Positions 1-16,898 are shown, counted from the stretch's first letter. The stretch is 29,543 nucleotides of DNA from Flavobacteriaceae bacterium (GCA_045046885.1 JASFYX010000028.1:1-29543); one strand, 5' to 3'. The notes: generated from the sequence alone by a model not told the origin. A program made the numbers and translations.

Positions 1-36
1 AGTTGTTGATAATTCATCGGCAATCAGTTTTTTTTT

Positions 37-68
37 CAAATATCGGAAAGTTAACTTTCCGATATTTG
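37..68. terminator. Perfect 32-bp palindrome CAAATATCGGAAAGTT|AACTTTCCGATATTTG, just downstream of the minus-strand secreted-protein gene. Strong hairpin, probably a terminator or protein-binding site.
   Basis: Read directly from the sequence: 16-nt arms that are exact reverse complements with no spacer, preceded by a T9 run at 25-33. The minus-strand gene 95..646 ends about 25 bp away. No clean U-tract follows on the minus strand, so classing it as an intrinsic terminator is tentative. Confidence 0.45.
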
Positions 69-94
69 TTTACTGTTGCACTTATTGTTTGAAC

Positions 95-646
95 TTAGTG
101 TTCAAAATCTAAAGTAGATACGGTTGTACTATTAATTAAATAGCTTATTTTATTGCCTATTTTTTCTATCCTTAGTATATTGTATTTACCTGTACTCCCT
201 TGTTTAATAGCGCTTGATTTTGTCCAAGCTACTAAATCTTTAAAACTACCATTATCATTTTTTGATATTCTATAATAGCCATCGCTTGTTATATTAAATG
301 CGTAAAAAGACCCCTTATCATCTCCTCCAAATGTCAAGCCATAGCCATAACCATCAACACCCGATTTTTTAATAGACAGTGTTTCTATTTTAAAATCTTT
401 ATCAGTATTAATATTTACAGATACGTGCGATTCCCATCCTCCTTTTTCTCTTTTGTGTTCAAAATGATAACTACCATTTCTTACACTTATATCGCGTTTA
501 GCATCATTACCTTCAGGCCAATTGTTTTTATTACTGTCAAAACCGTCAAAAAAAGGCAAACTCTTTCCGCTAACTACGTCTTGCGCAAATAATATTTGTG
601 TCGTTAAAAATAAAATCGAAATAAATAAAAACTTCTTTTTCATCAT
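95..646 (-). CDS. Small secreted hypothetical protein (183 aa) with an N-terminal signal peptide, immediately downstream of the C1 peptidase and apparently co-transcribed with it.
   Basis: The ORF begins MMKKKFLFISILFLTTQILFAQ, a typical Sec signal peptide. It is Gly/Tyr/Asp-rich with no recognisable catalytic motif. A 2-bp gap separates it from the upstream peptidase gene on the same strand. Confidence 0.6.
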   Translation of the reverse strand: MMKKKFLFISILFLTTQILFAQDVVSGKSLPFFDGFDSNKNNWPEGNDAKRDISVRNGSYHFEHKREKGGWESHVSVNINTDKDFKIETLSIKKSGVDGYGYGLTFGGDDKGSFYAFNITSDGYYRISKNDNGSFKDLVAWTKSSAIKQGSTGKYNILRIEKIGNKISYLINSTTVSTLDFEH

Positions 647-648
647 AA

Positions 649-2160: not shown

Positions 2161-2204
2161 AAAAATAGACTTTTTTTTTGAAGTTACTAAACTAGCTTCT
2201 AAAA

Positions 2205-2240
2205 AGACAAAAAAAAATACGTCAGATGACGTATTTTAGT
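2205..2240 (-). terminator. Rho-independent terminator of folE: an AATACGTCA / TGACGTATT stem flanked by an A-run and a T-run, so it can act in both directions.
   Basis: The plus strand reads aaaaaaaaatacgtcagatgacgtatttt. On the minus strand the hairpin is followed by a T9 run, and it lies 20 bp downstream of the folE stop. Confidence 0.7.
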
Positions 2241-2258
2241 ATGTTGTAATTCTGTAAT

Positions 2259-2975
2259 TTAAGACAGATTAAAATTGGTTTCTAACTTTATATAATCTAA
2301 AAACTCTTGCCTCACTTTGGTGTCTTTAAATACACCTCCAAATTCTGCTGTAACCGTACTGCTGGCAATATCTCTAATGCCACGTGAGTTAACACATAAA
2401 TGTTTGGCGTCAATAACACACGCCACATCTTCTGTACCCAAAGCTTTTTGTAAGGATTGAACCACTTGCATAGTTAAGCGCTCTTGCACTTGAGGACGCT
2501 TGGCAAAATAATCGACTATACGGTTCATTTTAGACAAGCCAATAACGCGACCTTTAGAAATATAAGCCACATGGGCTCGTCCTATAATGGGTAAAAAATG
2601 ATGTTCACAGGTTGTGTAGAGTACAATGTTTTTCTCTACCAACATTTCACCATATTTGTAATTATTGTCGAAAGTGGATAACTTGGGTTTTTTAGCGGGA
2701 TTTAAACCCGAAAATAATTCGTTTACAAAAGCTTTAGCTACACGTTTTGGCGTACCTTTTAAACTATCGTCATTTAAGTCTAAGCCAAGTGTTTCTAAAA
2801 TATTTTTAAAATCGACTGTTATTGCCGCAATTTTTTCTTCATCCGTCATCTTAAAGGCCTCTTTTCGCATAGGTGTAGTAGCCGATGTACTTATATGATC
2901 GTCTCCTATATCGTCAATTTCAAACTGACTTTTACCATTTTTTCCTTCGAACATAGTAATTAATTTAGCTTGCAA
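2259..2975 (-). CDS. folE: GTP cyclohydrolase I (FolE). The true start may be an internal Met (M36 or M43), because the N-terminal 40 aa extend beyond typical FolE length.
   Basis: Conserved FolE core LYTTCEHHFLPIIGRAHVAYISKGRVIGLSKMNRIVDYFAKRPQVQERLT, containing the Cys/His zinc-binding motif. Confidence 0.93.
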   Translation of the reverse strand: MQAKLITMFEGKNGKSQFEIDDIGDDHISTSATTPMRKEAFKMTDEEKIAAITVDFKNILETLGLDLNDDSLKGTPKRVAKAFVNELFSGLNPAKKPKLSTFDNNYKYGEMLVEKNIVLYTTCEHHFLPIIGRAHVAYISKGRVIGLSKMNRIVDYFAKRPQVQERLTMQVVQSLQKALGTEDVACVIDAKHLCVNSRGIRDIASSTVTAEFGGVFKDTKVRQEFLDYIKLETNFNLS

Positions 2976-2977
2976 AG

Positions 2978-4690
2978 TTATGAATTCTTTAGCAACTCAA
3001 TGAGTTCTTTTAAAGAACAATTTTGCTGCGTACCACTCTGCATATTTTTTAATGTAAATTCTTTGTTTTCTATTTCAGAACTTCCTGCTAAAACCACAAA
3101 ATCTATCTGGCGTTTATTGGCATAAGTCATCTGTTTTTTCATCTTAGCCTTATCGGGATAGAGCTCTGCACTTATATTGTTTTGACGTAATTCTTTGATG
3201 GTGTTTACAGCGTATAAAGCTTCTGTTGCCCCAAAATTGATAAACAATACTTTGGGCTTTGGCAAAGCAACTGCTTCAAACAAATTACTTTCTTCTAAAG
3301 CCAAATAAATACGGTCTAAACCGAATGATATACCAATACCACTCACATTTTTTAGACCAAAAATACCTGTTAAATCGTCGTAACGACCGCCACCACCAAT
3401 AGAACCTATTTTTACACCCGTGGCTTCTACTTCGTAAATAGCACCTGTATAATAATTTAAGCCACGTGCTAAAGTAACGTCTATTTCTAAAGTGGCACTT
3501 TGTAAACCAATAGTTTCTATGGCATCTGTTACAAATTGCAACTCCTCTACACCTTTTGTACCTTCAATAGAATTGGCCAACATTTTGCGCAATTCTGCCA
3601 GTTTATTTTTATTTGTGCCTTTAAAGTGGAATAATGGTTGCACTTTATCAATTGCTTCTTTACTGATACCTTTTGCCAACATTTCTTTGGTAACGCCTTC
3701 TACGCCTATCTTATCTAGCTTATCTAAAGCTACCGTGAAGTCGATTAACTTGTCTTTAGCGCCGATTATTTCGGCCAAGCCGGATAATATTTTTCGGTTG
3801 TTTAATTTGATTACAACAGGAGATAATTTTAATCTGGTAAACACATCGTCGTACAATTGTACAAAAGCGACTTCTTGCCATAAGGACTTACTGCCTACCA
3901 CATCGGCATCACACTGATAAAATTCTCTAAAGCGTCCTTTTTGAGGACGGTCTGCCCGCCAAACGGGTTGCATTTGATAGCGTTTAAACGGAAAAGTAAT
4001 GTCGTTTTGGTGTTGTACCACATAACGTGCAAAGGGTACGGTAAGGTCGTAACGCAAGGCTTTTTCTGAGATAAATGGGGTTATATAATTAGACTCAATG
4101 ATATTAAAATATTTATTATAAAGATATTGCGATTTTCTTTTTAACTGAAATGATGTCATTTTAGAAAAATTTTCCAAACGATAAGTAGTTTTGCCGACAC
4201 TTGATAAAATTAATTTTATAAATTTTTCATGTGAAAATATACCTTTAATTTTTTTGTCTTTTGAAAAATTTTCTTCAAGAAATTTCCTTATTTTAAAACT
4301 TGCATTTTTTTCAATTTTATTCAATATTTCCACTAAATCATCATGCTTATAGATGTCTATTTCACCTAACTCAAAATCAATCAAAAATTCTTGATTTTCT
4401 TTCAAAATATCATAAATAACTTCACAAAATACTTTCCTATATTTCTTATAATTATTTTTATATTTTAGAAAATAATCACCAGATTCTAAAATCTTAAATA
4501 TCAACCTATCCCCTTCTTCGCCGTATTTCCCCATAAGGGTACTGCTGTTTTCAAAAGCCGGTGTTTCTATTGGCATAAAGCCAAACAACTCAAACGATTT
4601 TTTAATGGTATTAAATATATATTGGCGCTGTGCCACTTCTGTGGGAGAGAAATCTCTAGTGCCTTTTGGTATGCTTGGTTTAACCGCCAT
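2978..4690 (-). CDS. hisS: Histidine--tRNA ligase (class II HisRS) with an atypical in-frame insertion of about 115 aa between motif 1 and the HisA/motif 2 region.
   Basis: - N-terminus: [11 protein letters not shown].
- Motif 1 region: [12 protein letters not shown].
- HisA: [14 protein letters not shown].
- Motif 2: [27 protein letters not shown].
- Motif 3 / GLDR: GGGRYDDL ... GISFGLDRI.
- C-terminal anticodon-binding domain.
The total length is 570 aa against about 450 aa for typical HisRS. The extra residues ([10 protein letters not shown]...IIESNYI) come from a very AT-rich stretch at nt 4130-4500. Confidence 0.92.
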
Positions 4691-4734
4691 GGTTTGTTTT
4701 CAATTTTAAAGTTGCAAATATCCTAAAAACTAGG

Positions 4735-5463
4735 CTATTTATCTAGTAAAAGTCGTGCATTTTCTAAATCTTCGGGTGTATCTATCCCAATGGGGTTGTA
4801 ATTAATCTCAACCATTTTAACAGGCATATTGTTATGGATAAAGCGTAGGTTTTCTAACTTTTCAATTTTTTCTAGAGGTGCCATCGGTAAATTAGTAAAA
4901 TCTATAAGGGCTTGTTTTCTAAAGGCGTAAATCCCTATATGCTTAAAATATTTAATGTCTATTTTAGCCCTGTTATACGGAATAACAGACCGCGAAAAAT
5001 ACCGTGCAAAATTATTTTTATCGACCACCACTTTTACGTTGTTCGGATTTTCTATGTCTTTGATATCCGTTAAAGAGGTCATTAAAGAGGCTAAAGCAAT
5101 CTTATTTTCTGTGTCGTTTTTAAAAACCGCCAGCAATGATGCCAAGGTATCTTTATTGGTAAAAGGTTCGTCACCTTGCACGTTAATCACAATATCTATA
5201 TCCATATTGGCAACAGCCTCTGCAATGCGGTCACTCCCACTTTCGTGTACTTTTAAACTCATAATGGCTTTACCGCCATTGTTGGTAATTTCGTCGAAAA
5301 TAATTTGACTGTCGGTAACAACATAAACGTCGTCAAACAAACGGGTGTTTACAGCAGCTAAATAAGTAGTCAATATAACCGATTTACCTCCCAAATCTTT
5401 CATGAGTTTACCCGAAAAGCGCGAGGCGTCATAACGGGCGGGTATCATTGCTATTATTTTCAT
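4735..5463 (-). CDS. kdsB: 3-deoxy-manno-octulosonate cytidylyltransferase (CMP-KDO synthetase).
   Basis: N-terminal [24 protein letters not shown], the NTP-transferase P-loop-like motif of KdsB, plus QGDEPF. Length 242 aa. Confidence 0.9.
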
Positions 5464-5735
5464 GTAAATGAATTAAGGAGCGAAGTTAAGAATTATAGTT
5501 TAAAAACAACTTCTTCAAAAGTTCAACTTTGTGTTTTTATAATTTTCTTCACCTCCGTTGACATCCTCTTTATATTTAAAACACACGCTTTCACTTTATA
5601 GCACTGTGCCTTATAACCCAACTAATATCCTAAAAGAGATATGTGCTCTTTAAAAAGATTAATACTTAACCTTGTCCTTCCCTTAAAATATCGTAAATTG
5701 TACCCTGCTAATTTTAAGCTTTTTATCTTTCAGTT

Positions 5736-7661
5736 TTGAAAACTCTTAAACGCAGATATAAAATTTCATCCCTCTTGTTTTTCTTGCTATTTTTCATTCC
5801 TATATTTGTATTTTCTCAAGATAATTTAACACTGCGGAAGAAGGAATTTTATAAAAGTCTAGACTCAGAAAAATTATATGTCAAAAATTTAAACATTGGC
5901 GCTAGAAGGTACACATTTAAGCAGGAGAATTTACAGAAATATTATAGTCAACTATTAAAAGAATATCAAGAAAAAAAATCTGCATCAAATAATTTACAGA
6001 AGGCAATTTGGCTGTATGAAATTGGATATATTCAAATAAGCCTTAATAGAGCAGCTTTAGCCACTAAAACTTTTGAAAAGGCTTTAAAACGGATTGATAA
6101 ACATAAAAATAAACGGGCCTATAAATATCTCAACATAGAGTTGGCCGATGCCTATAGACATACTGGTCAAAAGAAAAAATCTAATGATATTTTTACCGAG
6201 CTTTTAAAATTACCCTTGATTAAAAAAGATACCGTTATAAAAATATGGTGTCTTCGTATAATGTCAGAAAATTACGAAATTTTAAAAGAATATCAAAAAG
6301 CCATGAAGTTGTCGTTACAGCTATATAAACATTCTCTTAAGATTAAAGATTATGATGATGCTTCTTATAAACTTATTCAGATGGGCAGGATAGCGTCTTA
6401 TATTGAGCATGATACGGCCTACTTTGAATACTTTCATTTGGCAAACAAGATGGCTCAAAAATCGGGTGTAAAAAGTCGTATTGGCAATAATTTGGTCAAT
6501 ACAGGAATCGCTTATCGCAAAGCAGGGTATCCTTTAAAATCATTAAAATATCTACTAGATGCAGAATCATATGCCACTAGCTATACATCTTATGGGTATA
6601 TCTATAATTTACTAGGCTTAAGTGCAACTTATTCTAGTCTAGACAATATTCCACAAGCTTTTTCTTATGCTAAAAAAGCCTTTAAAATTGCTAAGGAAAT
6701 AGATGCCTTCAATTATTTATTTGATTCAAACCTCAAATTGGCGAATTGTTTTATAAAAATGAACCAAAATGATTCTGCTAGAATCTATTTAAAAAAAGCA
6801 TTAAGATTAGATAGAATAAACGAGAATACTAATCAATCTATAAATTTATATAAGCAGTTATCAGATATTAGTATTAAGCTTAAGGACTATGCCTCTGCCG
6901 TAGCCTACTTAGATTCATCATATCTTAAATACACCAAATTTATCACTAATACTAATGATGATAAATTGGCGCAGTTAAAGGTTGAATCTGATTATTATAT
7001 CCATATGGAAAGGATAACAGCATTGATTTCTAGGAACAGAGTTGAAAAAGAAAAAAGCAAATATTTTCTTATAATTATCATAAATACTTCTATAGCTCTT
7101 TTAATAACCATACTTTTAGTGTTAATTATTAGGCAAAGACTCCATCAGCTTAAAGAATCTCATTTTAACTTGGTTAAGAAAAATATAGAGCTTGATAGGT
7201 TGAATCATAAATTATACGAGTGTGAAATAACACCAAAGAGAAAAATAAAACTAGAACATGTTAAAGATGAAGGACTTATAATAGCAAAATTAAAAAGGTT
7301 TTTACACAAAGATGAAATTTTTAAAAATTCTGATTTATCGCTTATAAGTTTAGCCGAATTATTAAAAACCAATACGTCTTATCTTTCTGCTATTATAAAT
7401 AATCATTTTCACTGTAACCTGAGAAGCCTTCTTAATAAATACCGAATTGATAAAGCCAGAAAAATGTTAATCTCTAATAAATTTAAACATTATAGTATGG
7501 AGGGGATTTCTGTAGAGGTTGGTTTTAAATCGCGTTCTGTATTTTATCAAACATTTAAAAACATTACAGGATTAACGCCTACTCTTTATGTTAAAAACTA
7601 TACGTCTGCTTCGCAAGATTTAGAAAATTTGAAAGATTCTAAAATTGAACACGCCTTTTAA
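5736..7661 (+). CDS. Transmembrane one-component regulator: signal peptide, extracytoplasmic TPR repeat region, a single TM helix, and a cytoplasmic C-terminal AraC-family HTH domain. The ORF track starts it at a TTG codon.
   Basis: - N-terminus: LLFFLLFFIPIFVFSQ.
- TPR-like repeats across aa 90-400.
- TM helix: YFLIIIINTSIALLITILLVLII, around aa 430-455.
- C-terminal AraC HTH: GISVEVGFKSRSVFYQTFKNITGLTPTLYVKN.
The start codon at 5736 is TTG and there is no in-frame ATG nearby, so the start is uncertain. Confidence 0.8.
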   Translation: MKTLKRRYKISSLLFFLLFFIPIFVFSQDNLTLRKKEFYKSLDSEKLYVKNLNIGARRYTFKQENLQKYYSQLLKEYQEKKSASNNLQKAIWLYEIGYIQISLNRAALATKTFEKALKRIDKHKNKRAYKYLNIELADAYRHTGQKKKSNDIFTELLKLPLIKKDTVIKIWCLRIMSENYEILKEYQKAMKLSLQLYKHSLKIKDYDDASYKLIQMGRIASYIEHDTAYFEYFHLANKMAQKSGVKSRIGNNLVNTGIAYRKAGYPLKSLKYLLDAESYATSYTSYGYIYNLLGLSATYSSLDNIPQAFSYAKKAFKIAKEIDAFNYLFDSNLKLANCFIKMNQNDSARIYLKKALRLDRINENTNQSINLYKQLSDISIKLKDYASAVAYLDSSYLKYTKFITNTNDDKLAQLKVESDYYIHMERITALISRNRVEKEKSKYFLIIIINTSIALLITILLVLIIRQRLHQLKESHFNLVKKNIELDRLNHKLYECEITPKRKIKLEHVKDEGLIIAKLKRFLHKDEIFKNSDLSLISLAELLKTNTSYLSAIINNHFHCNLRSLLNKYRIDKARKMLISNKFKHYSMEGISVEVGFKSRSVFYQTFKNITGLTPTLYVKNYTSASQDLENLKDSKIEHAF

Positions 7662-7759
7662 ATCCTTTCGATTAAGCTTCTCAAATAAATAGCTGATAAT
7701 AAAAAACTTATCTAACTACTTCTTATGCTGTCCTGTTTTATAAACCAAGACATACAAAT

Positions 7760-7804
7760 CTTGTACAATAATAATTATCTCCTATACTTTGTACAACAAT
7801 AAAA
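7760..7804 (+). promoter_or_regulatory. Two copies of the self-complementary octamer TTGTACAA, each followed by an AT-rich tail ((T/C)AATAA), about 28 bp apart in the 5' region of the lipoprotein/metalloprotease operon. Candidate operator, possibly for the adjacent AraC-type regulator, and/or promoter elements.
   Basis: cTTGTACAATAATAA at 7760-7774 and tTTGTACAACAATAAAA at 7788-7804. TTGTACAA is a perfect palindrome. The site is 25-65 bp upstream of the ATG at 7827. Confidence 0.35.
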
Positions 7805-7826
7805 TCTGATTAAAAAGGAAACAATT

Positions 7827-8480
7827 ATGAAAACCTTAATAATCTATTCAACGCTTCTAATAATTTCTGTAATACTATTGATAAATTGTAGTAGTAGTAT
7901 TAATAACACACCTGTTTTTGTAAACAATAAATACCTAAATTATTTACCTGCTATTGCAAAAAAATACACACGTATCTGCAAAGAAAAAGAACTCAACAAT
8001 TCTGTAGAAATAAATGAGGCGTATAGATTAGATAAAGAACTAAAGCTTCTAGAAAGAGAATGGGGTACTAAAATATCTAAAAGCAACAATACAAACCCTT
8101 TTACTACCGCACTGCCTTTTAAAACATTACCTAGCATAAATTACACTATCAACCAGATAACTGTTATACGAGACAAAGTTTATAAAACCTGTATCATTAT
8201 AAAGTTTGATGTAATAATTACTAAAGATATTAAAAATGCATACGATGGGTTTCAAAAAAACCTTTTTATATACTATAAAGCTGTTGATAACAAGGGAAAG
8301 GAAATACCAAAAACAACTTCAATAGCTACAAATTACAATAGAGATAATTTAAAATCTGGTTTTACTTTCTCTATTTTAGGTCAACTAGGTCCTTTAGCAC
8401 AACTCGAAAACTTCGCAAAAATCAATTTGATATCTCAAGAAGAATACAACAACAAGAAATATAAAAATATAGCACCATGA
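7827..8480 (+). CDS. Hypothetical lipoprotein (217 aa), translationally coupled to the downstream T9SS metalloprotease through an ATGA overlap.
   Basis: Signal peptide with a lipobox (MKTLIIYSTLLIISVILLINC-SSS). Its stop overlaps the start of the next gene by 4 nt. No recognisable enzymatic motif. Confidence 0.6.
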   Translation: MKTLIIYSTLLIISVILLINCSSSINNTPVFVNNKYLNYLPAIAKKYTRICKEKELNNSVEINEAYRLDKELKLLEREWGTKISKSNNTNPFTTALPFKTLPSINYTINQITVIRDKVYKTCIIIKFDVIITKDIKNAYDGFQKNLFIYYKAVDNKGKEIPKTTSIATNYNRDNLKSGFTFSILGQLGPLAQLENFAKINLISQEEYNNKKYKNIAP

Positions 8481-11400
8481 AAAAAATTACTCTTTATTCG
8501 CTAATTATAAGCTTGTTTATCTCGAGTCTGTCTTTTGCTCAAACCACAACATCAGATAATTTTGTCTTTCACTACACAAACTCAAGCCTCATTTCTCAAA
8601 GTCTTATAGACGAAATGGAATTTAAATTTGATGCCATTGATAAAACTATTTATGAAGTTTGGAGCAATATTAATCTGCTAAATCGCTCTCAAAAAATAGA
8701 CGTGTATCTTTATGACGCTACAGAGTCTTTTCCATCAGCGCCAAGCGATATACGCAATTGGCATATAGGATATTATTCTACGTCTTCTAATGAGTTACAT
8801 ATAAAAGTACCCACAACTACAAGGCAATTAAAATATTTTCCAAATTTAGAAGCAGCGACTATTTCAATTTTAGCACGGTACATTGTAGATAAAAAGAAAG
8901 GTTCTAAACTGGTTGACGGACGTAGCTTTGCTTTTGGTTTATTTGAGTCGGGCTATTCACCTGATGTCAATCTAATAAATACTTATTTAAGTAATAATAG
9001 CAACACATTCCCCAATGGTTACAACTCTTTTAGTACGTGGGGTCAATTAGACGATGAAACCAATGTACAACTGGCTTACACTTATATGTTTGCCTCAATA
9101 TTTAGGTACGGCTACATACACGCTACAATATATAATGGCGTTTGGTATGGCTATGAAGGAGACCCTGGTGGCGTTTGGTATCAAATCACTAGGATATTTT
9201 TCCTTATAGATATTGCAAATGGTGGCATGAGAAAGTTTGTTGATAGAGACGATTTTGTTATCTATAGCAACAGTCAAGAACAAGCCGATTTATCATTAGA
9301 AGCTTTGCAATGGTATGCAAATAAGTACGATGAATATTATGGTGCAAGAATAAACCACCCGCTATTAGTAGCTATATACGGTTCAAATGAAACATACAGA
9401 TATGCAGAGCGTGGCAACATAGATTATTTAGAAGGAGGCGGCGAAGCGCGAGGACATGAGTTTTTAAGAACCAGTCCTGCCACAGAAAATCTAAATACAG
9501 AAAAGGATAGGGTTTTTACAAAATATTCGGGCATTATTGGCCATGAATTTATGCACAATGTATTTGCGTATTTAGCCGAAACAAGACCCCCAAGCTGGTT
9601 AAACGAAGGTTCTGCCATGTTTGGAGATGTAGGCTATCAAGAAGGCTATAAGGGTATTAATGTCTATAACATGGCAGGAAAACACAACTTTTTTTGGAAT
9701 ACCAACAGTATGTATTTTCCAGATTTAGATAAAATATTTGAAATGGATGGTGATTTTGGTTACAGGATGGGAACCTCTGCTTTCACTTTTATAAAAAATA
9801 GATTCCCAAAAGAGACACTCTTGCGATTTATGAAAAATTCTAATGATTTTTCAATTATTGGGTATGCTAATATTGGAGCGTTTCAATTACATCTGTACGA
9901 AACCTTATATCATAAATATATACCCACTTTTTTATTTAACCCTACTTGGGATTTAAATAGAACTTATACCGCAGGTTCTAATTATACATTTACTTGGGAT
10001 GGACATTATATCAGTAATTTGGTTATAGAATATTCAACAGATGCCAAGCAAAGTTGGATTCCAATAACAGAAGTTACCTTGTCAAGTGGCAGTTATGCTT
10101 GGACCGTACCAAACGCTACAAATTGTATTTTGCGTTTTTCTGATAAAAAACATCCCGAAATTAATTTTACGTATCAAATATTGGGTAACAAACCAACAAT
10201 AGGCGACGTATTTAATATGACTTTTGAAAATGGGGCTATTAACAATATAACCTCAGGAAATAGCGGTACAGGAAAAGATTATGTAAGCTATGTGCCAAGA
10301 AGTGGCAACGGTAATTACGCCAATTTTAATGGCTTGTGGAATGGCATAACTGTTCAGAATTACCCCGATTTAAATCTGAATGAAAATTGGACTATTCAAG
10401 GTGATTTTTTAATAGAAAACACAACAGGAGTTATGAATACAAAGCCTGTTTTATTAGAAAAAATAGCTACCGATTATTGGCATAAAAACTATTCTATTTC
10501 TTTCAACAATAATGGTGCAAACAAACTCCGTTTTGAATATCAATTAGAAAACAATTCAACCGTTTATTTAGATGTTGATGTGGGTATAACTAATAATAAT
10601 TGGTACACATTTTATTTTGCGCGTTCAGTAGAAAATAATCTTGTAGAAGCACGCGTCTATAATCAAAATGGAACCTTAATAGGTAGTAATAGCAGACCCT
10701 TAAATGGCGAAGGGAAAGTAAAAACGGGCAATGGCGGCTTATATTTAGGTAGTGGCGATTTTTCACTTAACGAAACATGCTTACAAGGCGGTCTTGATAA
10801 TATTATAATTTCTGATACTTACTCTGCAAGTCTTCTCTTAAATCAATTTAGCAGTGCACCTATTGTATCAGATATACCCAATCAAACCATAGCAAGTGGT
10901 GGTAGTTTTACCACAATTCAATTAGATGATTTTGTAAATGATCCCGATAATTCTGACAGCGAATTAACTTGGCGTTATACGGGAAATTCCGCGCTTTCTG
11001 TTACAATTGACGCCAATAGAATAGCTACAATTAATACACCAAGTGCAAATTGGAGCGGTCAAGAAACAATTACTTTCACGGCTACAGATCCCGATAATAA
11101 TACAGGAAGTGATGATGTCATATTCTCAGGAGGTGCAACACTTGTACTCCATTTTGATGGTGTTAATGATTACTTGAAACTTAGCAATTTTACTTATCCC
11201 ACAGCAAATATGACAATTGAAGCTTGGATAAAACCAAGTGATATTACTAGCACTCAAGAAATTATTTTTGGCAAAAACCCTTCAAACGGTAGTGCCATAC
11301 AATTTAGAATTAGTAAAGATGGCAGATTGTTATATGGCGAAAACCCTACTTGGGCTTACGTAACAGCCAGTAATTGCATTACACTAAACCAATGGAATCA

Positions 11401-12040
11401 TGTAGCGCTAGTAAAAGAAAATGGCGTGTGTAAATTATATGTAAACGGCATTAAACTAAATGAATATAATGTTAATCAAGGTGTTACGCCAACAAATTTT
11501 AGTATTGGTGGTAGAGCCGAAAATATGGATCGCTTCTTTAAAGGTGAGATGATTGATTTAAGAATATGGAATATTGCACGGTCGCAATCAGAAATACAAG
11601 CAAAAATGTACAATGTTTTAAGTGCCTCAGAAACGGGTTTGTTGGCTTATTGGAAAATGAATGAAGGGAGTGGACAAACAGCCGATAATTTAGTTAATAG
11701 TGGTTTTGGACTTCAATTGGGGTCAACAACTAATACAGATACAAACGACCCAGTTTGGATGCTCTCTACAACACCGGTTAACCAAGAGGTTTTAGGTGTA
11801 TCAGATGTCTATTTAGACAAAGCATTTTTAATGTACCCAAATCCGTCAAAAAACAATCTAAACATCAATTTACCCGAAAAAGTTGATTTATCTATTTACA
11901 CCATAACCGGCCAAAAAATTTTAGAAAAGAAGAATATTAAAAAAGGTCTTATTGATGTTTCAAAACTTAAATCGGGTCTTTATATAGTGCTATTTAAGGG
12001 AGTGAAAGGAACGCTCTCTAAAAAACTCATTATCGAATAA
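8477..12040 (+). CDS. Large (1187 aa) T9SS-secreted zinc metallopeptidase of gluzincin type, carrying LamG (laminin G-like / concanavalin A-like lectin) domains and a C-terminal T9SS sorting domain.
   Basis: - Signal peptide: MKKITLYSLIISLFISSLSFAQ.
- HEXXH at aa 356-360 (HEFMH, nt 9542-9556), followed 16 aa later by NEGSAMFGD (Glu377 as the likely third Zn ligand). This is a thermolysin-like gluzincin arrangement.
- LamG-like segment around aa 880-1080: HFDGVNDYLKL...WNHVALV...LYVNG...GEMIDLRIWN...AYWKMNEGSG.
- An Ig/cadherin-like segment.
- C-terminal 70 aa, FLMYPNPSKNNLNINLP...LSIYTITGQKI...LKSGLYIVLFKG, is a canonical Por-secretion CTD. Confidence 0.85.
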   Translation: MKKITLYSLIISLFISSLSFAQTTTSDNFVFHYTNSSLISQSLIDEMEFKFDAIDKTIYEVWSNINLLNRSQKIDVYLYDATESFPSAPSDIRNWHIGYYSTSSNELHIKVPTTTRQLKYFPNLEAATISILARYIVDKKKGSKLVDGRSFAFGLFESGYSPDVNLINTYLSNNSNTFPNGYNSFSTWGQLDDETNVQLAYTYMFASIFRYGYIHATIYNGVWYGYEGDPGGVWYQITRIFFLIDIANGGMRKFVDRDDFVIYSNSQEQADLSLEALQWYANKYDEYYGARINHPLLVAIYGSNETYRYAERGNIDYLEGGGEARGHEFLRTSPATENLNTEKDRVFTKYSGIIGHEFMHNVFAYLAETRPPSWLNEGSAMFGDVGYQEGYKGINVYNMAGKHNFFWNTNSMYFPDLDKIFEMDGDFGYRMGTSAFTFIKNRFPKETLLRFMKNSNDFSIIGYANIGAFQLHLYETLYHKYIPTFLFNPTWDLNRTYTAGSNYTFTWDGHYISNLVIEYSTDAKQSWIPITEVTLSSGSYAWTVPNATNCILRFSDKKHPEINFTYQILGNKPTIGDVFNMTFENGAINNITSGNSGTGKDYVSYVPRSGNGNYANFNGLWNGITVQNYPDLNLNENWTIQGDFLIENTTGVMNTKPVLLEKIATDYWHKNYSISFNNNGANKLRFEYQLENNSTVYLDVDVGITNNNWYTFYFARSVENNLVEARVYNQNGTLIGSNSRPLNGEGKVKTGNGGLYLGSGDFSLNETCLQGGLDNIIISDTYSASLLLNQFSSAPIVSDIPNQTIASGGSFTTIQLDDFVNDPDNSDSELTWRYTGNSALSVTIDANRIATINTPSANWSGQETITFTATDPDNNTGSDDVIFSGGATLVLHFDGVNDYLKLSNFTYPTANMTIEAWIKPSDITSTQEIIFGKNPSNGSAIQFRISKDGRLLYGENPTWAYVTASNCITLNQWNHVALVKENGVCKLYVNGIKLNEYNVNQGVTPTNFSIGGRAENMDRFFKGEMIDLRIWNIARSQSEIQAKMYNVLSASETGLLAYWKMNEGSGQTADNLVNSGFGLQLGSTTNTDTNDPVWMLSTTPVNQEVLGVSDVYLDKAFLMYPNPSKNNLNINLPEKVDLSIYTITGQKILEKKNIKKGLIDVSKLKSGLYIVLFKGVKGTLSKKLIIE

Positions 12041-12136
12041 ATAAATTTGAAAATATAACACGTGGAGCTTAGAACCCACTTTAAAAAACAAAGCGTATCC
12101 GAAAAGCTATACGAGTAGGACCAAAACAAACACATT

Positions 12137-13342
12137 ATGGGATTATTTGACAGAACAGGTAAAGGCCGCACTTTTGATGGGAAAGAAAGTGAAAGAAAAG
12201 GCTTTATAGACAGAATAATATGGGAAACTGAAAAAGGAGAAATTACCTATAAGTTTCCTTATGATAACCTAACAACAGGAGCCGTTTTAATTGTTCGTGA
12301 ACATCAAAAGGCATTCTTCTTTAAAGATGGGGTGATGTATGATTCTTTCGGACCGGGAAGGCATACCTTAGAAACGGCAAACATACCATTTCTTCATAAA
12401 GCTCTAGACATCGCAACAGGTGGTGACAGCTCATTTATTGCAGAAGTATGGTTTGTAAGTACAGAACTGGCAAAAAGAAATATGCCTTGGGGTATTGGTG
12501 GATTAGAAATTGTGGATCCTTATGTCGGGGTTCTCGTAAAGCTAGGCGCCAGAGGCCAATATGGTTTTAAAATTTCTGATCCAGAAATCTTAATTAAAAA
12601 AATGGTAGGCTCATCTCACACATTTACTACAAATGAACTCTATGAACAATTTGAAGGTGACGTAATAGAAGGGGTGAAGAATGATTTAGCTGATTTTATA
12701 AAAAAGGAAAAATTAAGTATCGGTGATCTTGCTCGCTCACAGAAAGATATTGCAAATCATATAAAACAAAACCTCGATGTCACATTTATGGAGTATGGTG
12801 TTGAACTTCTCAATTTTAATATAAAAGGAATTGAAATTGATAAGAAGGATGAAGCTTACAAAACAGCAATGGAAGGTATTGCAGCAGGTGCTGCAGCAAA
12901 ACGCAGAAGAGAGATACTAGGCGATGCTTACACACAAGAACGTCAATTAGACATTATGGAACAAGCCGCTAAAAATGAAGGTATGGCAGGTGCTGCCATG
13001 GGCGCAGGTATGGGTGCCGGAATGGGCTTAGGCATGGGTAACATGGTAGGTAACATGATGACTAACGTGCAAGGAAATCCACAACAATCAGGAGCGCCAC
13101 AGCCTCCAGGAGCCGTTCCGCCACCCGTAGCCACTATATACACCACGCAAAACGGACAGACCTTAGGACCTTATTCAATACAACAGATAAATGAATTTGT
13201 TACACAAAACACAGTCACAAAAGACTCTCTTGTATGGAAACAAGGCATGCAAAATTGGGTTGCAGCAGCAACATTACCAGAATTACAACCACTGTTTCAG
13301 CAATCAAATACACCGCCTCCTCCACCGCCACCTGTTAAATAG
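12137..13342 (+). CDS. SPFH (Band_7_1-like) domain protein with a Gly/Met-rich low-complexity linker, proline-rich segments and a C-terminal GYF-like domain (DUF4339 / GYF_2 type).
   Basis: - N-terminus: MGLFDR...FIDRIIWE.
- An alpha/beta SPFH-like core with no TM helix.
- GMAGAAMGAGMGAGMGLGMGNMVGNMM repeats.
- PQPPGAVPPPVA.
- GYF-like motif: IYTTQNGQTLGPYSIQQINEFV...SLVWKQGMQNWVAAATLPEL.
- PPPPPPPVK tail. Confidence 0.8.
   Translation: MGLFDRTGKGRTFDGKESERKGFIDRIIWETEKGEITYKFPYDNLTTGAVLIVREHQKAFFFKDGVMYDSFGPGRHTLETANIPFLHKALDIATGGDSSFIAEVWFVSTELAKRNMPWGIGGLEIVDPYVGVLVKLGARGQYGFKISDPEILIKKMVGSSHTFTTNELYEQFEGDVIEGVKNDLADFIKKEKLSIGDLARSQKDIANHIKQNLDVTFMEYGVELLNFNIKGIEIDKKDEAYKTAMEGIAAGAAAKRRREILGDAYTQERQLDIMEQAAKNEGMAGAAMGAGMGAGMGLGMGNMVGNMMTNVQGNPQQSGAPQPPGAVPPPVATIYTTQNGQTLGPYSIQQINEFVTQNTVTKDSLVWKQGMQNWVAAATLPELQPLFQQSNTPPPPPPPVK
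12976..13056 (+). repeat. Imperfect 9-nt tandem repeats (GGTATGGGT-type) encoding the Gly-Met-Gly-Ala low-complexity linker of the SPFH protein.
   Basis: ggtatggcaggtgctgccatgggcgcaggtatgggtgccggaatgggcttaggcatgggtaacatggtaggtaacatg. Confidence 0.55.
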
Positions 13343-13387
13343 GGTGTATCACTAAATATATTTTAAACCTTTTAAAACCAAATAAAA

Positions 13388-14131
13388 ATGAAATATTTAA
13401 ATACAATACTCTTAATAATAGTTCCCAGTGTAACTATTGGTCTTTTCTTTTTGTTAGGAGACCCCTTAGAAACACCTTTATTCTATGTTAATCTAGGATT
13501 CACATGCCTCTTAGAGTTGATTCTTTTCGGCACAATAATAAGAGTTTCTAGCAAACCTCTGTTTAATGTCCCTAATCTGGCAGCATCTATCCAAATAGGT
13601 CGCTATGTCTTTTTAGCAGCAACTATTATGGTTGTTTATAATGTGTTATTTTATATCCTTAAAATTGACATTCACCCCAAATGGTACTTTGGCGCATTAA
13701 TTTTAACAACTCTTATTTACCTTGTCTTTATCATATTTGTCATTCAAGGTGGTAAGGTTCAAATGCAGCAAAGTGCAGATGTTAAAGAAAAAACAATACA
13801 GAGAACCAATTTTAAAGACAATGCCTTAGCTCTAAGTACTGATTATAAGCGCATGGCAATATCAAAAAAAAAGATAGACTATAAACTACTTGAAGAATGC
13901 AAGAAAGCTATCAATCTAATAGGTGATAAAATAAGCATAATTCCAATTGCAAAACTAGAAAGAAACACTGAACTCATTGCCAAAATAAACGATGAAATAA
14001 ATGAACTTCAAATCATCTTAAATCAGATAAAAGAAACCGACGACACAAAAAATAATATCGTGCAAATACAAATTTTGCGAGATAATGCTTACGGTGTGGC
14101 CGATAAAATCAATTTAATTAATCAAATCTAA
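13388..14131 (+). CDS. Integral membrane protein with four predicted N-terminal TM helices and a cytoplasmic coiled-coil C-terminal half. Second gene of the SPFH module.
   Basis: Hydrophobic segments:
- ILLIIVPSVTIGLFFLL
- LGFTCLLELILFGTII
- IQIGRYVFLAATIMVVYNVLFYIL
- WYFGALILTTLIYLVFIIFVIQ
C-terminal half with heptad-like spacing: NDEINELQIILNQIKE. It lies 45 bp downstream of the SPFH gene. Confidence 0.65.
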   Translation: MKYLNTILLIIVPSVTIGLFFLLGDPLETPLFYVNLGFTCLLELILFGTIIRVSSKPLFNVPNLAASIQIGRYVFLAATIMVVYNVLFYILKIDIHPKWYFGALILTTLIYLVFIIFVIQGGKVQMQQSADVKEKTIQRTNFKDNALALSTDYKRMAISKKKIDYKLLEECKKAINLIGDKISIIPIAKLERNTELIAKINDEINELQIILNQIKETDDTKNNIVQIQILRDNAYGVADKINLINQI

Positions 14132-14142
14132 ATTTTATAAAT

Positions 14143-15210
14143 ATGTCTTCAATTCAAATTCAACAAATTAAATGTCCAGAATGTGGTGGACAACTAAACA
14201 GTGTAGGCCCTTTTTCGCCACTAAAGACCTGTGCCTATTGCCATAGTGAATTCCAAGTCACTGGAACTATGGAGAAAGAAATGGAAACACCCGATCGTAT
14301 CATCGTTTTTAAAACAAATAAAGATGATTTTGAAAAAGAAGTGTTAACACTATTAGCCGAAGAAGATTATGCCCCTAACGATATTTTTGAAACTGCTGCT
14401 TTTAAAGATGTAGAAGGTATTTATCTTCCTATGTATTTATTTGAAGGGAAATATGAATGCTCATGGAATTGTTCCGTGGGTTATGCAGAAAATGAAGTGA
14501 GAGCTACCTATGATGGTAAAGGTGTAAAAGATGTTGAGGTTATCAAATACAGACCTCAAAGCGGCACGACAAAAAGTAATTATGCCATTGTATGTGTAGC
14601 TTATGAGGGACAAGAAATAAAACCTGAACTCATTGAATACACACGCTCTTATTTTTATGATAAAAACGCAGCTAAAGCTTTTGATGGAACCGATTTAGAA
14701 GGCTATAACTTTGTACTTCATAACTTAGACAAAGAATTAACTTGGGATAAATACGGAACAAGTTCAATAGAATATCTATCAGAACAAAAAAGTCTTGAAC
14801 AAATACCTGGTGATAATTACAAAGATTTTACCTGTAGCTTAAGCACAGACGAAAAAAATGATGGCAGACTGGTTTTTCTTCCTTTCTGGATGGTATATTA
14901 CGATTATAAAGACGAACATCATTATGCTATTATGGATGGAACTGGTGATTCTGGCATTACAGGAAGTACACCTGTAGATTTAGATAGATACAATGCTGTA
15001 CAAAAATGGCATAAAATTGCTAAATATGTTAAATGGGCTGCTTTTGCATCACTTATTCTTATCTTAAAATCAATATATTTCCCAATAATTGTTTGGGCTG
15101 CATTTGGTGGGTTAAAGGGGTACGCTATTTATAATGAAAAAATGATTTTAAATGCTAATAAAAAAATCAGGGAAGATAAGTTAGCTGAAATACTTGCCAG
15201 TGAAAATTAG
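14143..15210 (+). CDS. Zinc-ribbon protein with a central domain of about 250 aa, unknown function, and a single C-terminal TM helix (tail-anchored topology). Third gene of the SPFH module.
   Basis: - N-terminal zinc ribbon: CPECGG-x13-CAYCH.
- C-terminal TM helix: WAAFASLILILKSIYFPIIVWAAFGGL.
- 11-bp gap after the preceding gene.
- A terminator hairpin lies 158 bp downstream. Confidence 0.7.
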   Translation: MSSIQIQQIKCPECGGQLNSVGPFSPLKTCAYCHSEFQVTGTMEKEMETPDRIIVFKTNKDDFEKEVLTLLAEEDYAPNDIFETAAFKDVEGIYLPMYLFEGKYECSWNCSVGYAENEVRATYDGKGVKDVEVIKYRPQSGTTKSNYAIVCVAYEGQEIKPELIEYTRSYFYDKNAAKAFDGTDLEGYNFVLHNLDKELTWDKYGTSSIEYLSEQKSLEQIPGDNYKDFTCSLSTDEKNDGRLVFLPFWMVYYDYKDEHHYAIMDGTGDSGITGSTPVDLDRYNAVQKWHKIAKYVKWAAFASLILILKSIYFPIIVWAAFGGLKGYAIYNEKMILNANKKIREDKLAEILASEN

Positions 15211-15367
15211 AATAAATTGAGGCCTTAAAAAGCTATTTTAAAAGTACAAGCCAGTGTCTATTTAACTACCATTAGAAAACTATTATTATATATTGAAATA
15301 ATACTGACACCGAATTAGCCCCTTTTTATATGCTAAAACTTGGTATTATATGGTATTTTTAAAAAAT

Positions 15368-15402
15368 AAAAAACCCGTAAACATTTGATTTACGGGTTTT
15401 TA
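15368..15402. terminator. Bidirectional rho-independent terminator (AACCCGTAAA / TTTACGGGTT stem flanked by an A6 run and a T5 run). It serves the plus-strand SPFH operon and the minus-strand tRNA-Ser.
   Basis: The plus strand reads aaaaaacccgtaaacatttgatttacgggttttt, with a perfect 10-bp stem. It lies between the gene ending at 15210 and the tRNA 3' end at 15425. Confidence 0.75.
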
Positions 15403-15424
15403 GTTGGATTTGACAAAATCCTAG

Positions 15425-15509
15425 CGGAGAAAGAGGGATTCGAACCCCCGGAGGTGTGACCCTCAACAGTTTTCAAGACTGCCGCATTCGACCACTCTGC
15501 CATTTCTCC
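15425..15509 (-). tRNA. tRNA-Ser (anticodon UGA), class II tRNA with a long variable arm, 85 nt. CCA is not encoded.
   Basis: The reverse complement is GGAGAAATGGCAGAGTGGTCGAATGCGGCAGTCTTGAAAACTGTTGAGGGTCACACCTCCGGGGGTTCGAATCCCTCTTTCTCCG.
- 7-bp acceptor stem GGAGAAA / TTTCTCC with discriminator G.
- 3-bp D stem with GG.
- anticodon loop CTTGAAA (UGA).
- long variable arm.
- T-loop GGTTCGAATCC. Confidence 0.92.
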
Positions 15510-15644
15510 TTTAGCGTGCGCAAATATAAAACCCTTTTTTGTTTTGCTCAAACATTTTTGTTCTTTTTTTTGATTATAAATGCATAACGAAAAAGACATT
15601 TAATAATTCGAAAAAAAAACTTACTTTGTGAAGCAATATTTAAT

Positions 15645-16898
15645 ATGATTACACATAAATATTTTCCTACAAAGTACACAATTCGCTTTTTAGTCTGGAT
15701 AGTTTTTACCGTTTTTGTAAAACTATTTAGAATTAAAAAAAATATGCCTAATGAAATTAAGCTTCTTAAACCCCCTTATTTACTATTAGGGAATCATGTT
15801 GGCTATTGGGATGCTTTTATTATAGGCCATTTTCTGCCTCATTTTACACATTTTATTTCTTCTGATGCCACTTTTAGACAACCCTTTATGCACTTTTTTT
15901 TAACGCGTTTAGGAACTATTCCTGTAAAAAAGAACACACGCGACACCCAAGTTGTAAGAGATATGATTTCTGTAATTAACCAAGGTGAAAACATAGGTAT
16001 TTTTCCCGAAGCGCTAAGAAGTTGGACCGGAAGTAGTTTTAAGATGGATGCTTCAATAGCAAAATTTATTAAACTTTTAAATGTACCTGTTGTGGTTGCT
16101 ACAGCGAAAGGAATGAGCCTTTTTAATCCCCGTTGGTCTACAAAATTCAGGTTTACAAAAGTAGTAATAGACTATAATTTGGTGTTTACAAAAAATGTAC
16201 TGCAAGACATGTCAAATCAAGATATTTATATAAAATTGAACAAAGCTTTTCATCATGACGAAGTAGCGTATCAGCAAAAGAAAATGAATAAAATACGCTC
16301 TAATCATAAAGCCGAACACATTAGTTACGTCCTTTACCTATGTCCTAATTGTCAATCTATTGATAGTTTTAAAGCCTCCGGAAACACCTTTTCTTGTACG
16401 CACTGTAAGTACGATATTCACATAAATAGTTTTGGCTTTTTTGAACGGATGTCTGATGGAAAATTATTTTTTAGCAATATACGCGATTGGTACTCTTGGG
16501 AAGAAAAATACTTGTTAAATCATGTCAATAAAATGTTTGACAATAAGGAGAACTCTTGTATTTTTGAAGACAGTCATTCAAAATTTTACCGTAGTAATGC
16601 CAAAGGTAAAATGGTTTTTATTGATACCGTAAACCTTAAACTATTTATTGATAGAATTGAAATTGAGCAACTCTCTAAAAGCCGTACGATTACATTTAAT
16701 CTTATCGATTTACAAACTATAAATCCGCAAATTAACGAACGCTTAGAAGTTTATTACGCTGACGAAGCCTATCGATTTGTTGGTAGAGAACCCGGTGTTT
16801 CGGGGCTTAAGTGGGAAGTAGCTGTTAATGCCCTATGGAAAAAAACAGGGCAGACCCATAAATTGTCTGTGTATATCGCGCAAAATCTAGAAGAATAA
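15645..16898 (+). CDS. Lysophospholipid acyltransferase (PlsC / LPLAT family) with a C-terminal extension of about 200 aa containing a CxxC...CxxC zinc ribbon.
   Basis: - HX4D acyltransferase motif: GNHVGYWDAF.
- FPEALRS, equivalent to FPEGTR.
- Zinc ribbon: CPNCQS-x14-CTHCKY.
- N-terminal hydrophobic segment: FLVWIVFTVFVKLF. Confidence 0.75.
   Translation: MITHKYFPTKYTIRFLVWIVFTVFVKLFRIKKNMPNEIKLLKPPYLLLGNHVGYWDAFIIGHFLPHFTHFISSDATFRQPFMHFFLTRLGTIPVKKNTRDTQVVRDMISVINQGENIGIFPEALRSWTGSSFKMDASIAKFIKLLNVPVVVATAKGMSLFNPRWSTKFRFTKVVIDYNLVFTKNVLQDMSNQDIYIKLNKAFHHDEVAYQQKKMNKIRSNHKAEHISYVLYLCPNCQSIDSFKASGNTFSCTHCKYDIHINSFGFFERMSDGKLFFSNIRDWYSWEEKYLLNHVNKMFDNKENSCIFEDSHSKFYRSNAKGKMVFIDTVNLKLFIDRIEIEQLSKSRTITFNLIDLQTINPQINERLEVYYADEAYRFVGREPGVSGLKWEVAVNALWKKTGQTHKLSVYIAQNLEE

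Follow-up and report, generated by a model that had tools for sequence, protein, structure and literature searches.

Positions 12137-15210 of a 29,543-nucleotide stretch of DNA from a Flavobacteriaceae bacterium (GCA_045046885.1, JASFYX010000028.1; the whole stretch is called the window below) carry three consecutive genes, g1, g2 and g3, of which the first encodes an SPFH protein that has no transmembrane (TM) segment and is homologous to YdjI, the third a putative membrane anchor homologous to YdjG, and the second a protein with four predicted TM helices from an orphan family. YdjI and YdjG are products of the pspA-ydjG-ydjH-ydjI operon of Bacillus subtilis. The trio recurs as a syntenic unit across bacterial phyla, in a vicinity free of pspA, and we consider it probable that it forms an SPFH scaffold that operates beneath the membrane independently of PspA, with the YdjG-family protein and a new 4-TM protein as anchors and a cassette of GYF domain and polyproline as a latch.

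SPFH proteins are universal, and their roles in bacteria are poorly understood. To our knowledge, YdjI of B. subtilis is the only studied member of the soluble Band_7_1 branch of these proteins, and it has been viewed as an adaptor of PspA. The results described here present the YdjI/YdjG pair as a self-standing and deeply conserved unit that does without PspA, and show that the trio, whose third subunit is a different one, occurs in genera that are abundant in the human gut (Prevotella, Parabacteroides, Muribaculaceae, Akkermansia). Relatives of g1 and g3 were already known in B. subtilis; what is new relative to that organism is the third part, the GYF/polyproline tail of g1, and the lack of PspA. 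The analysis also reveals a swappable adaptor slot in the SPFH protein, where GYF_2 accompanied by its own polyproline leads to a directly testable latch hypothesis, and defines two families that have no Pfam model, namely the YdjG core (more than 2500 representative clusters) and the family of g2.

The three proteins and their relatives

The genes are co-directional open reading frames (ORFs) on the + strand, separated by gaps of 45 and 11 bp and preceded by a spacer of 96 bp upstream of g1 (Table 1). The preliminary description of this locus had reported this tight arrangement, a soluble Band_7_1 protein with a Gly-Met linker, polyproline tracts and a GYF_2 domain for g1, and a CxxC...CxxC ribbon, a central domain and one C-terminal TM segment for g3, all of which were recovered by ORF calling, Pfam, conservation and hydropathy.

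The Band_7_1 match of g1 reaches 114 bits against a gathering cut-off of 24 and covers model positions 9-196 of 211, and its GYF_2 match reaches 60.5 bits against a cut-off of 25.8 over model positions 2-50 of 50, which places g1 among both the SPFH proteins and the bacterial GYF_2 proteins. In NCBIfam the GYF stretch aligns to the GYF region of GltJ, at just 22.8 bits against a cut-off of 450. No TM-like segment is apparent in the hydropathy profile. BLASTP aligns g1 with YdjI of Bacillus at 26% identity over 323 aa, the Gly/Met linker included (E 2e-14), and with the SPFH protein of a Comamonas replicon at E 2e-26; judged by these alignments, g1 is a true YdjI homologue.

A segment rich in Gly, Ala and Met near residue 280 is present in nearly all of 52 distinct SPFH homologues, YdjI among them (median 18 of 25 residues), and the C-terminal module that follows this conserved linker differs by lineage. 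It is a double Zn ribbon in the YdjI-type protein of Bacillus (locus L008, 4539-5510), SHOCT in gut-type proteins (e.g. L029, 4197-5276), an excisionase-like helix-turn-helix in the Comamonas protein (L093, 4339-5439), and GYF_2 with polyproline in the flavobacterial type (window 13139-13339). As read from the sequences, the C-terminus of the SPFH protein is a swappable adaptor slot.

All distinct SPFH homologues of the GYF type (8/8) contain runs of three or more prolines, and none of the others does (0/44). These runs flank GYF_2 on both sides in each of the eight, the C-terminal run being conserved in every one, and there are none in the g2 or g3 partners. GYF and polyproline thus co-occur strictly and move as a single cassette. 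Experiments on the bacterial protein GltJ have established that its GYF domain has micromolar affinity for a proline-rich sequence of AglZ (PMC11135422), and an earlier remark that g1 carries a reader together with its ligand is well founded in view of this precedent and of the distribution of proline runs. Binding of a proline-rich sequence by the GYF_2 domain of g1 is a candidate function to which the co-occurrence and the GltJ case point indirectly, and a latch acting in cis or between subunits would be the simplest reading of the cassette. A Zn ribbon adjoins the domain in 44% of bacterial GYF proteins, and a role as a switch module has been proposed for them (PMC11135422). In one member of the YdjG family (P0122, 492 aa) a GYF_2 domain at the N-terminus (aa 3-52, E 8e-10) precedes the Zn ribbon, and therefore the adaptor seems able to sit on either partner.

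The relationship of g3 to YdjG is distant at the level of pairwise comparison (21% identity over 291 aa, BLASTP E 6e-8) and evident at the level of profiles: a family profile of 81 diverse g3 sequences (alignment A2) matches Bacillus YdjG with an hhalign probability of 99.7% (E 8e-27, 263 columns), and the alignment shares the motif LP(F/V)WMV.YDY...(M)(D/N)G. By these comparisons g3 is a true YdjG homologue. An earlier profile search for homologues of g3 had returned 23 proteins, none of them named YdjG; the Bacillus locus was retrieved from close relatives of B. subtilis by an exact match of the published ydjG primer, and its four genes were read in B. stercoris (L008). A word-indexed search yielded 14 close clusters for g3, while a profile search of 1.84 billion representatives yielded 2524 proteins at E<=1e-3 and 626 at E<=1e-10.

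Each of the four ribbon cysteines of g3 (C11, C14, C30, C33) is at least 90% conserved among the 81 homologues, and the ribbon profile matches the zinc ribbons of eS27, RNAP-P and TFIIE in the PDB. In Pfam, g3 itself gives sub-threshold zinc-ribbon matches only, Zn_Ribbon_TF is matched by 18/105 members of its family, and the scan of all 105 members matched zinc-ribbon models only. NCBIfam, PADLOC and PHROGs had nothing informative on g3. Searches of PDB sequences with the g3 profile likewise matched the ribbon and not the core. An AlphaFold2 model built from the 81 diverse sequences has a mean predicted local distance difference test score (pLDDT) of 96.3 and a predicted template-modelling score (pTM) of 0.88; the 14 close homologues had yielded a pLDDT of only 54. 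In the model the ribbon leads into a helix and a very long beta-hairpin (91-152); more helices and a sheet come next, with a helical hairpin (280-308 / 312-354) at the C-terminus. The near-invariant residues of the family are the four Cys together with Pro, Gly, Trp and Tyr, and the alignment of 81 homologues contains no conserved acid, base or nucleophile in the core. Because the conserved residues are structural and include no such group, the pattern speaks for a domain that binds or scaffolds and against an enzyme.

Longer members of the YdjG family (P0072, P0101, P0110, P0117) have Lcl_C, LprI, WG_beta_rep or TPR domains past the TM segment. Because these domains are appended after the hydrophobic segment, their position suggests an N-in/C-out topology in which the ribbon and the core are predicted to be cytoplasmic, and the appendages themselves look like sensor-like extensions facing outward. 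A Foldseek comparison of the g3 model with the PDB returned only beta-pore-forming toxins at E>=0.04 and a TM-score of about 0.08, which we treat as noise. Against BFVD the model matches two proteins of the giant viruses Yasminevirus and Edafosvirus called 'DnaJ-like subfamily C member 3' (E 1e-8 and 1.5e-7, TM-score 0.40), and the YdjG core may thus have homologues in viruses. The label 'DUF4178' attached to a Parabacteroides homologue of g3 was not reproduced by Pfam. One 90%-identity cluster mixes 357-aa proteins of the g3 type with 230-aa proteins that are of the g2 type according to hidden Markov models (HMMs); gene calls running across both genes have probably produced this mixture as an artefact of clustering.

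The second protein is the least familiar of the three. The preliminary description made it a 4-TM protein with a long coiled coil; four hydrophobic segments are indeed present, and the C-terminal 128 aa are hydrophilic, rich in Ile, Lys, Asn and Leu and contain a single Pro, a composition that fits a helical or coiled-coil domain. The protein has no family in Pfam, NCBIfam, PADLOC or PHROGs, and no similarity to any PDB chain was found. In the surveyed loci g2 genes always stand between or beside the SPFH and YdjG-like genes, and the profiles of the flavobacterial and gut types match each other (hhalign 95.8%, E 8e-9), so far as profiles can tell making the middle gene homologous across trio loci. 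A relationship to YdjH, which matches TPM_phosphatase in Pfam at 1e-23, was ruled out (BLASTP E 0.29 for g2; hhalign 0.6% for the g2 family profile), as was a PspA- or ESCRT-III-like nature of the cytoplasmic domain (hhalign against PspA 0.15%). From the sequence comparisons, g2 is a non-homologous replacement of YdjH and represents an orphan family for which Pfam has no model.

Table 1. Features of the trio and of the adjoining tRNA-Ser in the window
Feature	Position	Strand	Basis or remark
g1	12137..13342	+	ORF, 401 aa; soluble, putative SPFH scaffold protein, YdjI homologue
g1 SPFH / Band_7_1 domain, aa 43-235	12263..12841	+	Pfam PF13421, E 9.9e-33
g1 Gly/Ala/Met-rich, glycine-zipper-like linker, aa 281-311	12977..13069	+	best 25-aa window with 21 G/A/M
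g1 proline-rich tract 1, PQPPGAVPPPVA, aa 321-332	13097..13132	+	sequence reading; directly N-terminal of GYF_2
g1 GYF_2 domain, aa 335-383	13139..13285	+	Pfam PF14237, E 1.3e-16
g1 proline-rich tract 2, PPPPPPPVK, aa 393-401	13313..13339	+	sequence reading; extreme C-terminus
g2	13388..14131	+	ORF, 247 aa; predicted membrane protein, orphan family
g2 four TM helices, aa 6-119	13403-13744	+	predicted; four hydrophobic segments (hydropathy)
g2 hydrophilic, probably helical cytoplasmic domain, aa 120-247	13745-14128	+	composition, hydropathy
g3	14143..15210	+	ORF, 355 aa; putative membrane anchor of the YdjG family
g3 Cys4 zinc ribbon, C11/C14/C30/C33	14173..14241	+	CxxC...CxxC motif, aa 11-33
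g3 core alpha/beta domain, aa 50-279 (~230 aa)	14290..14979	+	no Pfam model, no solved relative
g3 C-terminal hydrophobic anchor, aa 296-325, then 30-aa amphipathic tail	15028..15117	+	predicted from hydropathy
Hairpin, 13-14 bp, in the g3/tRNA-Ser interval	15369..15401	.	terminator scan; good T-run on minus strand only
tRNA-Ser(tga)	15424-15509	minus	3' end towards the trio, 213 bp from g3

Conservation of the trio and comparison with known systems

Further loci were found through exact look-ups of g3 and g2 homologues (L001, L003-L006), and each of them contains a Band_7_1+GYF_2 protein, a protein of about 240 aa and one of about 356 aa as a trio, with flanks that differ from locus to locus. 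A scan of metagenomes added 80 loci with g3 identities of 30-42%, in which the ORFs were searched with HMMs made from the window proteins and from the Bacillus proteins. The order SPFH, g2, g3 is kept in about 55 loci, essentially all those with enough upstream DNA, although g3 identity is only 30-40% there; the exceptions are a few rotations (L069) and four loci with an insertion of about 1.4 kb between g2 and g3. Dozens of independent loci share both the three families and their order, so that chance does not explain the adjacency, and the trio is a syntenic unit, a widely conserved operon, as the preliminary description had anticipated when it proposed a stand-alone module without pspA.

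Exact look-ups named the hosts as Prevotella sp., Parabacteroides gordonii/timonensis, Muribaculaceae and Akkermansia muciniphila, in addition to Flavobacteriaceae. Every named trio member is annotated as 'hypothetical protein', and we found no publication on the trio in Bacteroidota, in agreement with the view that it is uncharacterised there. A PspA HMM run over all ORFs of the window and of about 90 loci gave matches in Bacillus loci only, the Pfam scan identified no PspA/IM30 among the window ORFs, and no TPM match was obtained outside the Bacillus loci.

The pair of SPFH and YdjG-like genes also occurs without a middle gene. On a Comamonas replicon the SPFH gene lies directly upstream of one for a YdjG-like 'TFIIB-type zinc ribbon-containing protein' (hhalign 99.8%, E 6e-30), and in L094 and L097 a Band_7_1+SHOCT gene stands beside a YdjG-like gene. 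Small proteins of the Gly-zipper_YMGG type are encoded directly after the YdjG-like gene in Comamonas (L093 6899-7132, minus strand) and in a GYF-type metagenomic locus (L096 4340-4954). In L047, L052, L056 and L067 a protein of about 466 aa with a signal peptide, several TM segments and no Pfam family is encoded between g2 and g3, and the same type of protein is found upstream of g3 in L045 (80-1480).

In B. subtilis, pspA-ydjG-ydjH-ydjI is an operon of the sigma-W regulon (Scholz et al. 2021, PMC8581546; Ravi et al. 2024, PMC11237479). The soluble SPFH protein YdjI depends there on the membrane proteins YdjG and YdjH, the membrane foci of YdjI and PspA are lost upon deletion of ydjG or ydjH, and two-hybrid interactions have been detected among the four proteins (PMC8581546). 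YdjG contains a TFIIB-type Zn ribbon (PMC9239133); in the account of Ravi et al. (PMC11237479) it joins two Zn ribbons to an NTF2-like domain that is uncharacterised and to a TM segment, and YdjH is a protein with a TPM domain. The preliminary description agrees with this literature, and the likeness to ydjGHI that it drew holds for g1 and g3 and fails for g2. YdjI and g1 are both soluble SPFH proteins of the Band_7_1 branch in which a Gly/Met low-complexity linker leads to a small C-terminal domain; like YdjG, g3 combines a Zn ribbon, an uncharacterised core and a predicted C-terminal TM segment; and in both cases the genes are co-directional and tightly spaced and include a third membrane protein. 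The trio differs from the Bacillus operon in that pspA does not belong to it, and in that the third protein is an orphan with four predicted TM helices and a probably helical domain instead of the TPM-domain protein YdjH. Furthermore, the SPFH gene comes first in the trio and last in B. subtilis, g3 has one Zn ribbon whereas YdjG has two, the SPFH tail consists of GYF_2 and polyproline in g1 and of a double Zn ribbon in YdjI, and the hosts are Bacteroidota and Verrucomicrobiota for the trio and Bacillota for pspA-ydjGHI.

The layout of g1, with an SPFH domain, a linker and a short C-terminal module, is also that of the Band_7_1-SHOCT proteins (Eberhardt et al. 2013, PMC3581485), and the g1 orthologues of Prevotella, Parabacteroides and Akkermansia have exactly the Band_7_1-SHOCT architecture, whereas g1 itself has GYF_2 between polyproline tracts in place of SHOCT. 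The operon partners, i.e. g2 and the YdjG-like protein, were not described in the 2013 SHOCT paper (PMC3581485). The ZnR-linker-GYF region of GltJ from Myxococcus (Attia et al. 2024, PMC11135422) resembles the trio in placing a GYF_2-type domain under the membrane together with a Zn ribbon and a proline-rich ligand. However, in GltJ the Zn ribbon and the GYF domain are on one polypeptide and the proline-rich ligand is on AglZ, whereas in the trio GYF and polyproline are on g1 and the Zn ribbon is on g3, and the gliding-motility context of GltJ is not shared by the trio. Flotillins with their NfeD-type partners (FloA/FloT with YqiJ/YuaF) and HflK/C likewise combine an SPFH gene with a dedicated membrane partner next to it, and share the idea of oligomeric assemblies that organise membranes. 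Their SPFH proteins, unlike the soluble Band_7_1 protein g1, have a TM helix or hairpin of their own and belong to the Band_7 (PF01145) or flotillin families, and both g2 and g3 are unrelated to NfeD.

The proposed scaffold and its alternatives

In the scaffold that we envisage, g3 would expose a cytoplasmic Cys4 ribbon and an alpha/beta core of about 230 aa while being held at the membrane through its C-terminal anchor, and g2, a 4-TM protein with a cytoplasmic helical domain, would take the place of the TPM protein YdjH. Together they would constitute a membrane platform that recruits the soluble g1, which presumably oligomerises there; oligomerisation is a general behaviour of SPFH proteins. 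The oligomer would project its G/A/M-rich linkers and the exchangeable C-terminal adaptors, here GYF_2 between polyproline tracts, and this cassette would most likely bind to itself as a latch or cross-link adjacent subunits. It would gate or strengthen the assembly, or a proline-rich client could displace it. With YdjI as the model, the finished scaffold would organise membrane under stress or repair it, and would recruit an effector whose gene lies elsewhere. Physical interaction of g1, g2 and g3 is implied by this scheme, as are the predicted topologies of g2 and g3; a role in membrane stress, induction by envelope stress and a recruitment of g1 to the membrane that depends on g2 and g3 would follow if the trio behaves as its relatives do in B. 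subtilis.

Several observations speak against this proposal. Experimental data on members of these families are confined to B. subtilis, where the recruitment of PspA is the one known output of the system, and neither the window nor the related loci gave a PspA hit. The middle component is non-homologous, so the analogy to Bacillus may not carry over, and the coiled coil of g2 and the topologies of g2 and g3 are predictions from hydropathy, composition and domain architecture. In three loci distant YdjG-like genes have no SPFH neighbour, and the family is thus not limited to the anchoring of SPFH proteins. Finally, in 19 of the 31 gut-type loci with more than 2.5 kb of upstream DNA the trio is preceded by genes for a HerA-like ATPase and an acidic disordered protein, in the order ATPase, acidic protein, SPFH, g2, g3, which may indicate a role that goes further than passive scaffolding. 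The genes adjoining the SPFH-less YdjG-like genes encode a Clp_N-TIR protein (contig of P0155), or DUF2169 and PAAR-like proteins as in type VI secretion systems, together with a HicAB toxin-antitoxin (L011/L012).

All five genes of this extended cluster have the same orientation, the gaps measure about 7 and 22 bp, and the arrangement is found in at least four of six g3 lineages. The ATPase, a HerA/FtsK-like P-loop protein of about 890 aa, matches DUF87/HerA (3e-9), the DNA-translocating ATPase CedD (1e-24, below the cut-off), and the PADLOC models of HerA and mad8, and the second gene encodes a highly acidic, low-complexity protein of variable length (220-460 aa). Loci of this kind come from Prevotella-like genomes of gut and rumen (L057 33-7059; also L025, L039, L044, L048, L050-L064, L080-L089). 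The ATPase/acidic pair was found neither in the window nor in any of the GYF-type loci (L001-L006, L096), nor in the loci of Akkermansia, Parabacteroides, Bacillus or Comamonas. We treat it as a lineage-specific add-on, and it is also our main ground for considering the more novel reading that follows.

It is tempting to combine all these loci into a single picture, in which the SPFH and YdjG-like pair is the core of a widespread membrane machine independent of PspA, given its specificity by plug-in C-terminal adaptors (Zn ribbon, SHOCT, GYF with polyproline, HTH), provided with a 4-TM partner of its own in Bacteroidota and Akkermansia, and coupled to a HerA/FtsK-like ATPase and an acidic protein in many gut commensals. 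It would then be an undescribed system for ATP-assisted remodelling, translocation or defence and not an accessory of Psp; we put this forward tentatively, as a possibility that we ourselves regard as doubtful. Another reading, in which the trio serves a larger ATP-driven machine as its membrane platform, would be co-transcribed in many relatives with the ATPase and acidic-protein genes, and acts in the translocation or remodelling of a macromolecule at the membrane instead of scaffolding stressed membrane, while the partners in the window organism are encoded elsewhere or have been lost, would make sense of the close-spaced five-gene order, its recurrence among g3 lineages and the family matches of the ATPase. 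We consider it unlikely, as the trio or the dyad is the autonomous conserved core, given that the ATPase is missing from the loci listed above, and the association could be a lineage-specific synteny of Prevotella-like genomes.

The scaffold proposed above must also be weighed against a role in defence. The idea of a phage sensor had already been raised in the preliminary description, and in its developed form the SPFH/YdjG-like complex would sense the membrane damage inflicted by phage and trigger an anti-phage response or abortive infection. One can cite for it the complete type I restriction-modification system (HsdM, HsdS, HsdR) and the DUF1016/YhcG nuclease genes immediately downstream of the trio in L006 (12062-19810), the Clp_N-TIR protein that adjoins a distant YdjG-like gene, the resemblance of the HerA-type ATPases near gut-type trios to defence-associated HerA and mad8, and the membership of the Bacillus relatives in the 'phage shock' network. 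These hints are sporadic. PADLOC-DB 2.0 gave no match for g1, g3 or the gut-type trio proteins and a single chance-level match for g2 (E 0.022), leaving the sensor idea with no direct support; the trio contains no recognisable effector domain (nuclease, TIR, pore-former, protease); its neighbours are mostly housekeeping or secretion genes that change by lineage; and its order and presence are stable across deep divergence, unlike those of typical defence islands. Searched by tBLASTn with g3, a collection of 50,697 phage records and another of 72,556 plasmid records each gave one partial match. A defensive function thus seems to us quite improbable. The trio as phage or plasmid cargo was ruled out on the single partial match in each collection.

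The view of the trio as cargo of an island integrated at tRNA-Ser, an accessory origin that the preliminary description had read from the proximity of the tRNA, is already largely refuted and has next to no likelihood, because, although the 3' end of the tRNA points at the trio from 213 bp and the window stays collinear with its closest relative (L005) only up to 81 bp past g3, on the tRNA side, the 29.5-kb window contains no integrase or mobility gene in the Pfam scan, positions 1-16000 contain no direct repeat of the tRNA 3' end (15424-15470), the G+C content of the trio (0.33-0.39) is like that of its flanks, the 6-10 kb around the trio are free of tRNAs in L001 and L003-L006, and L005 is collinear with the window over 8454-15291 at 90.9% nucleotide identity, through the upstream type IX secretion system (T9SS) cargo gene and the trio, so that the break lies beyond the trio and not around it.

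Surroundings of the trio in the window

The only strong hairpin near the trio (Table 1) begins 158 bp past the stop codon of g3. A terminator after the last gene had been announced for this position; the hairpin stands, and because a proper T-run is present on the minus strand only, it is primarily the terminator of tRNA-Ser, although it may stop the operon transcript as well.

The break in collinearity lies at window 15291-15424, compared with L005 11906-12324. Past it the window continues with tRNA-Ser and an acyltransferase gene and L005 with a thioredoxin gene, and from the comparison of the two sequences window 15291-15424 appears to mark a rearrangement point adjoining tRNA-Ser.

The Pfam scan of the window ORFs identified housekeeping genes, including those for histidyl-tRNA synthetase, GTP cyclohydrolase I, a cytidylyltransferase of the CMP-KDO synthetase type, phosphoenolpyruvate carboxylase and a DEAD-box helicase, together with T9SS cargo genes and AraC regulators. 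The gene upstream of the trio (8477-12040) encodes a T9SS cargo protein of 1187 aa with Big_9, Laminin_G_3 and Por_Secre_tail domains, and farther upstream (649-2160) lies a gene for a papain-like Peptidase_C1 protein with a DUF4384 domain.

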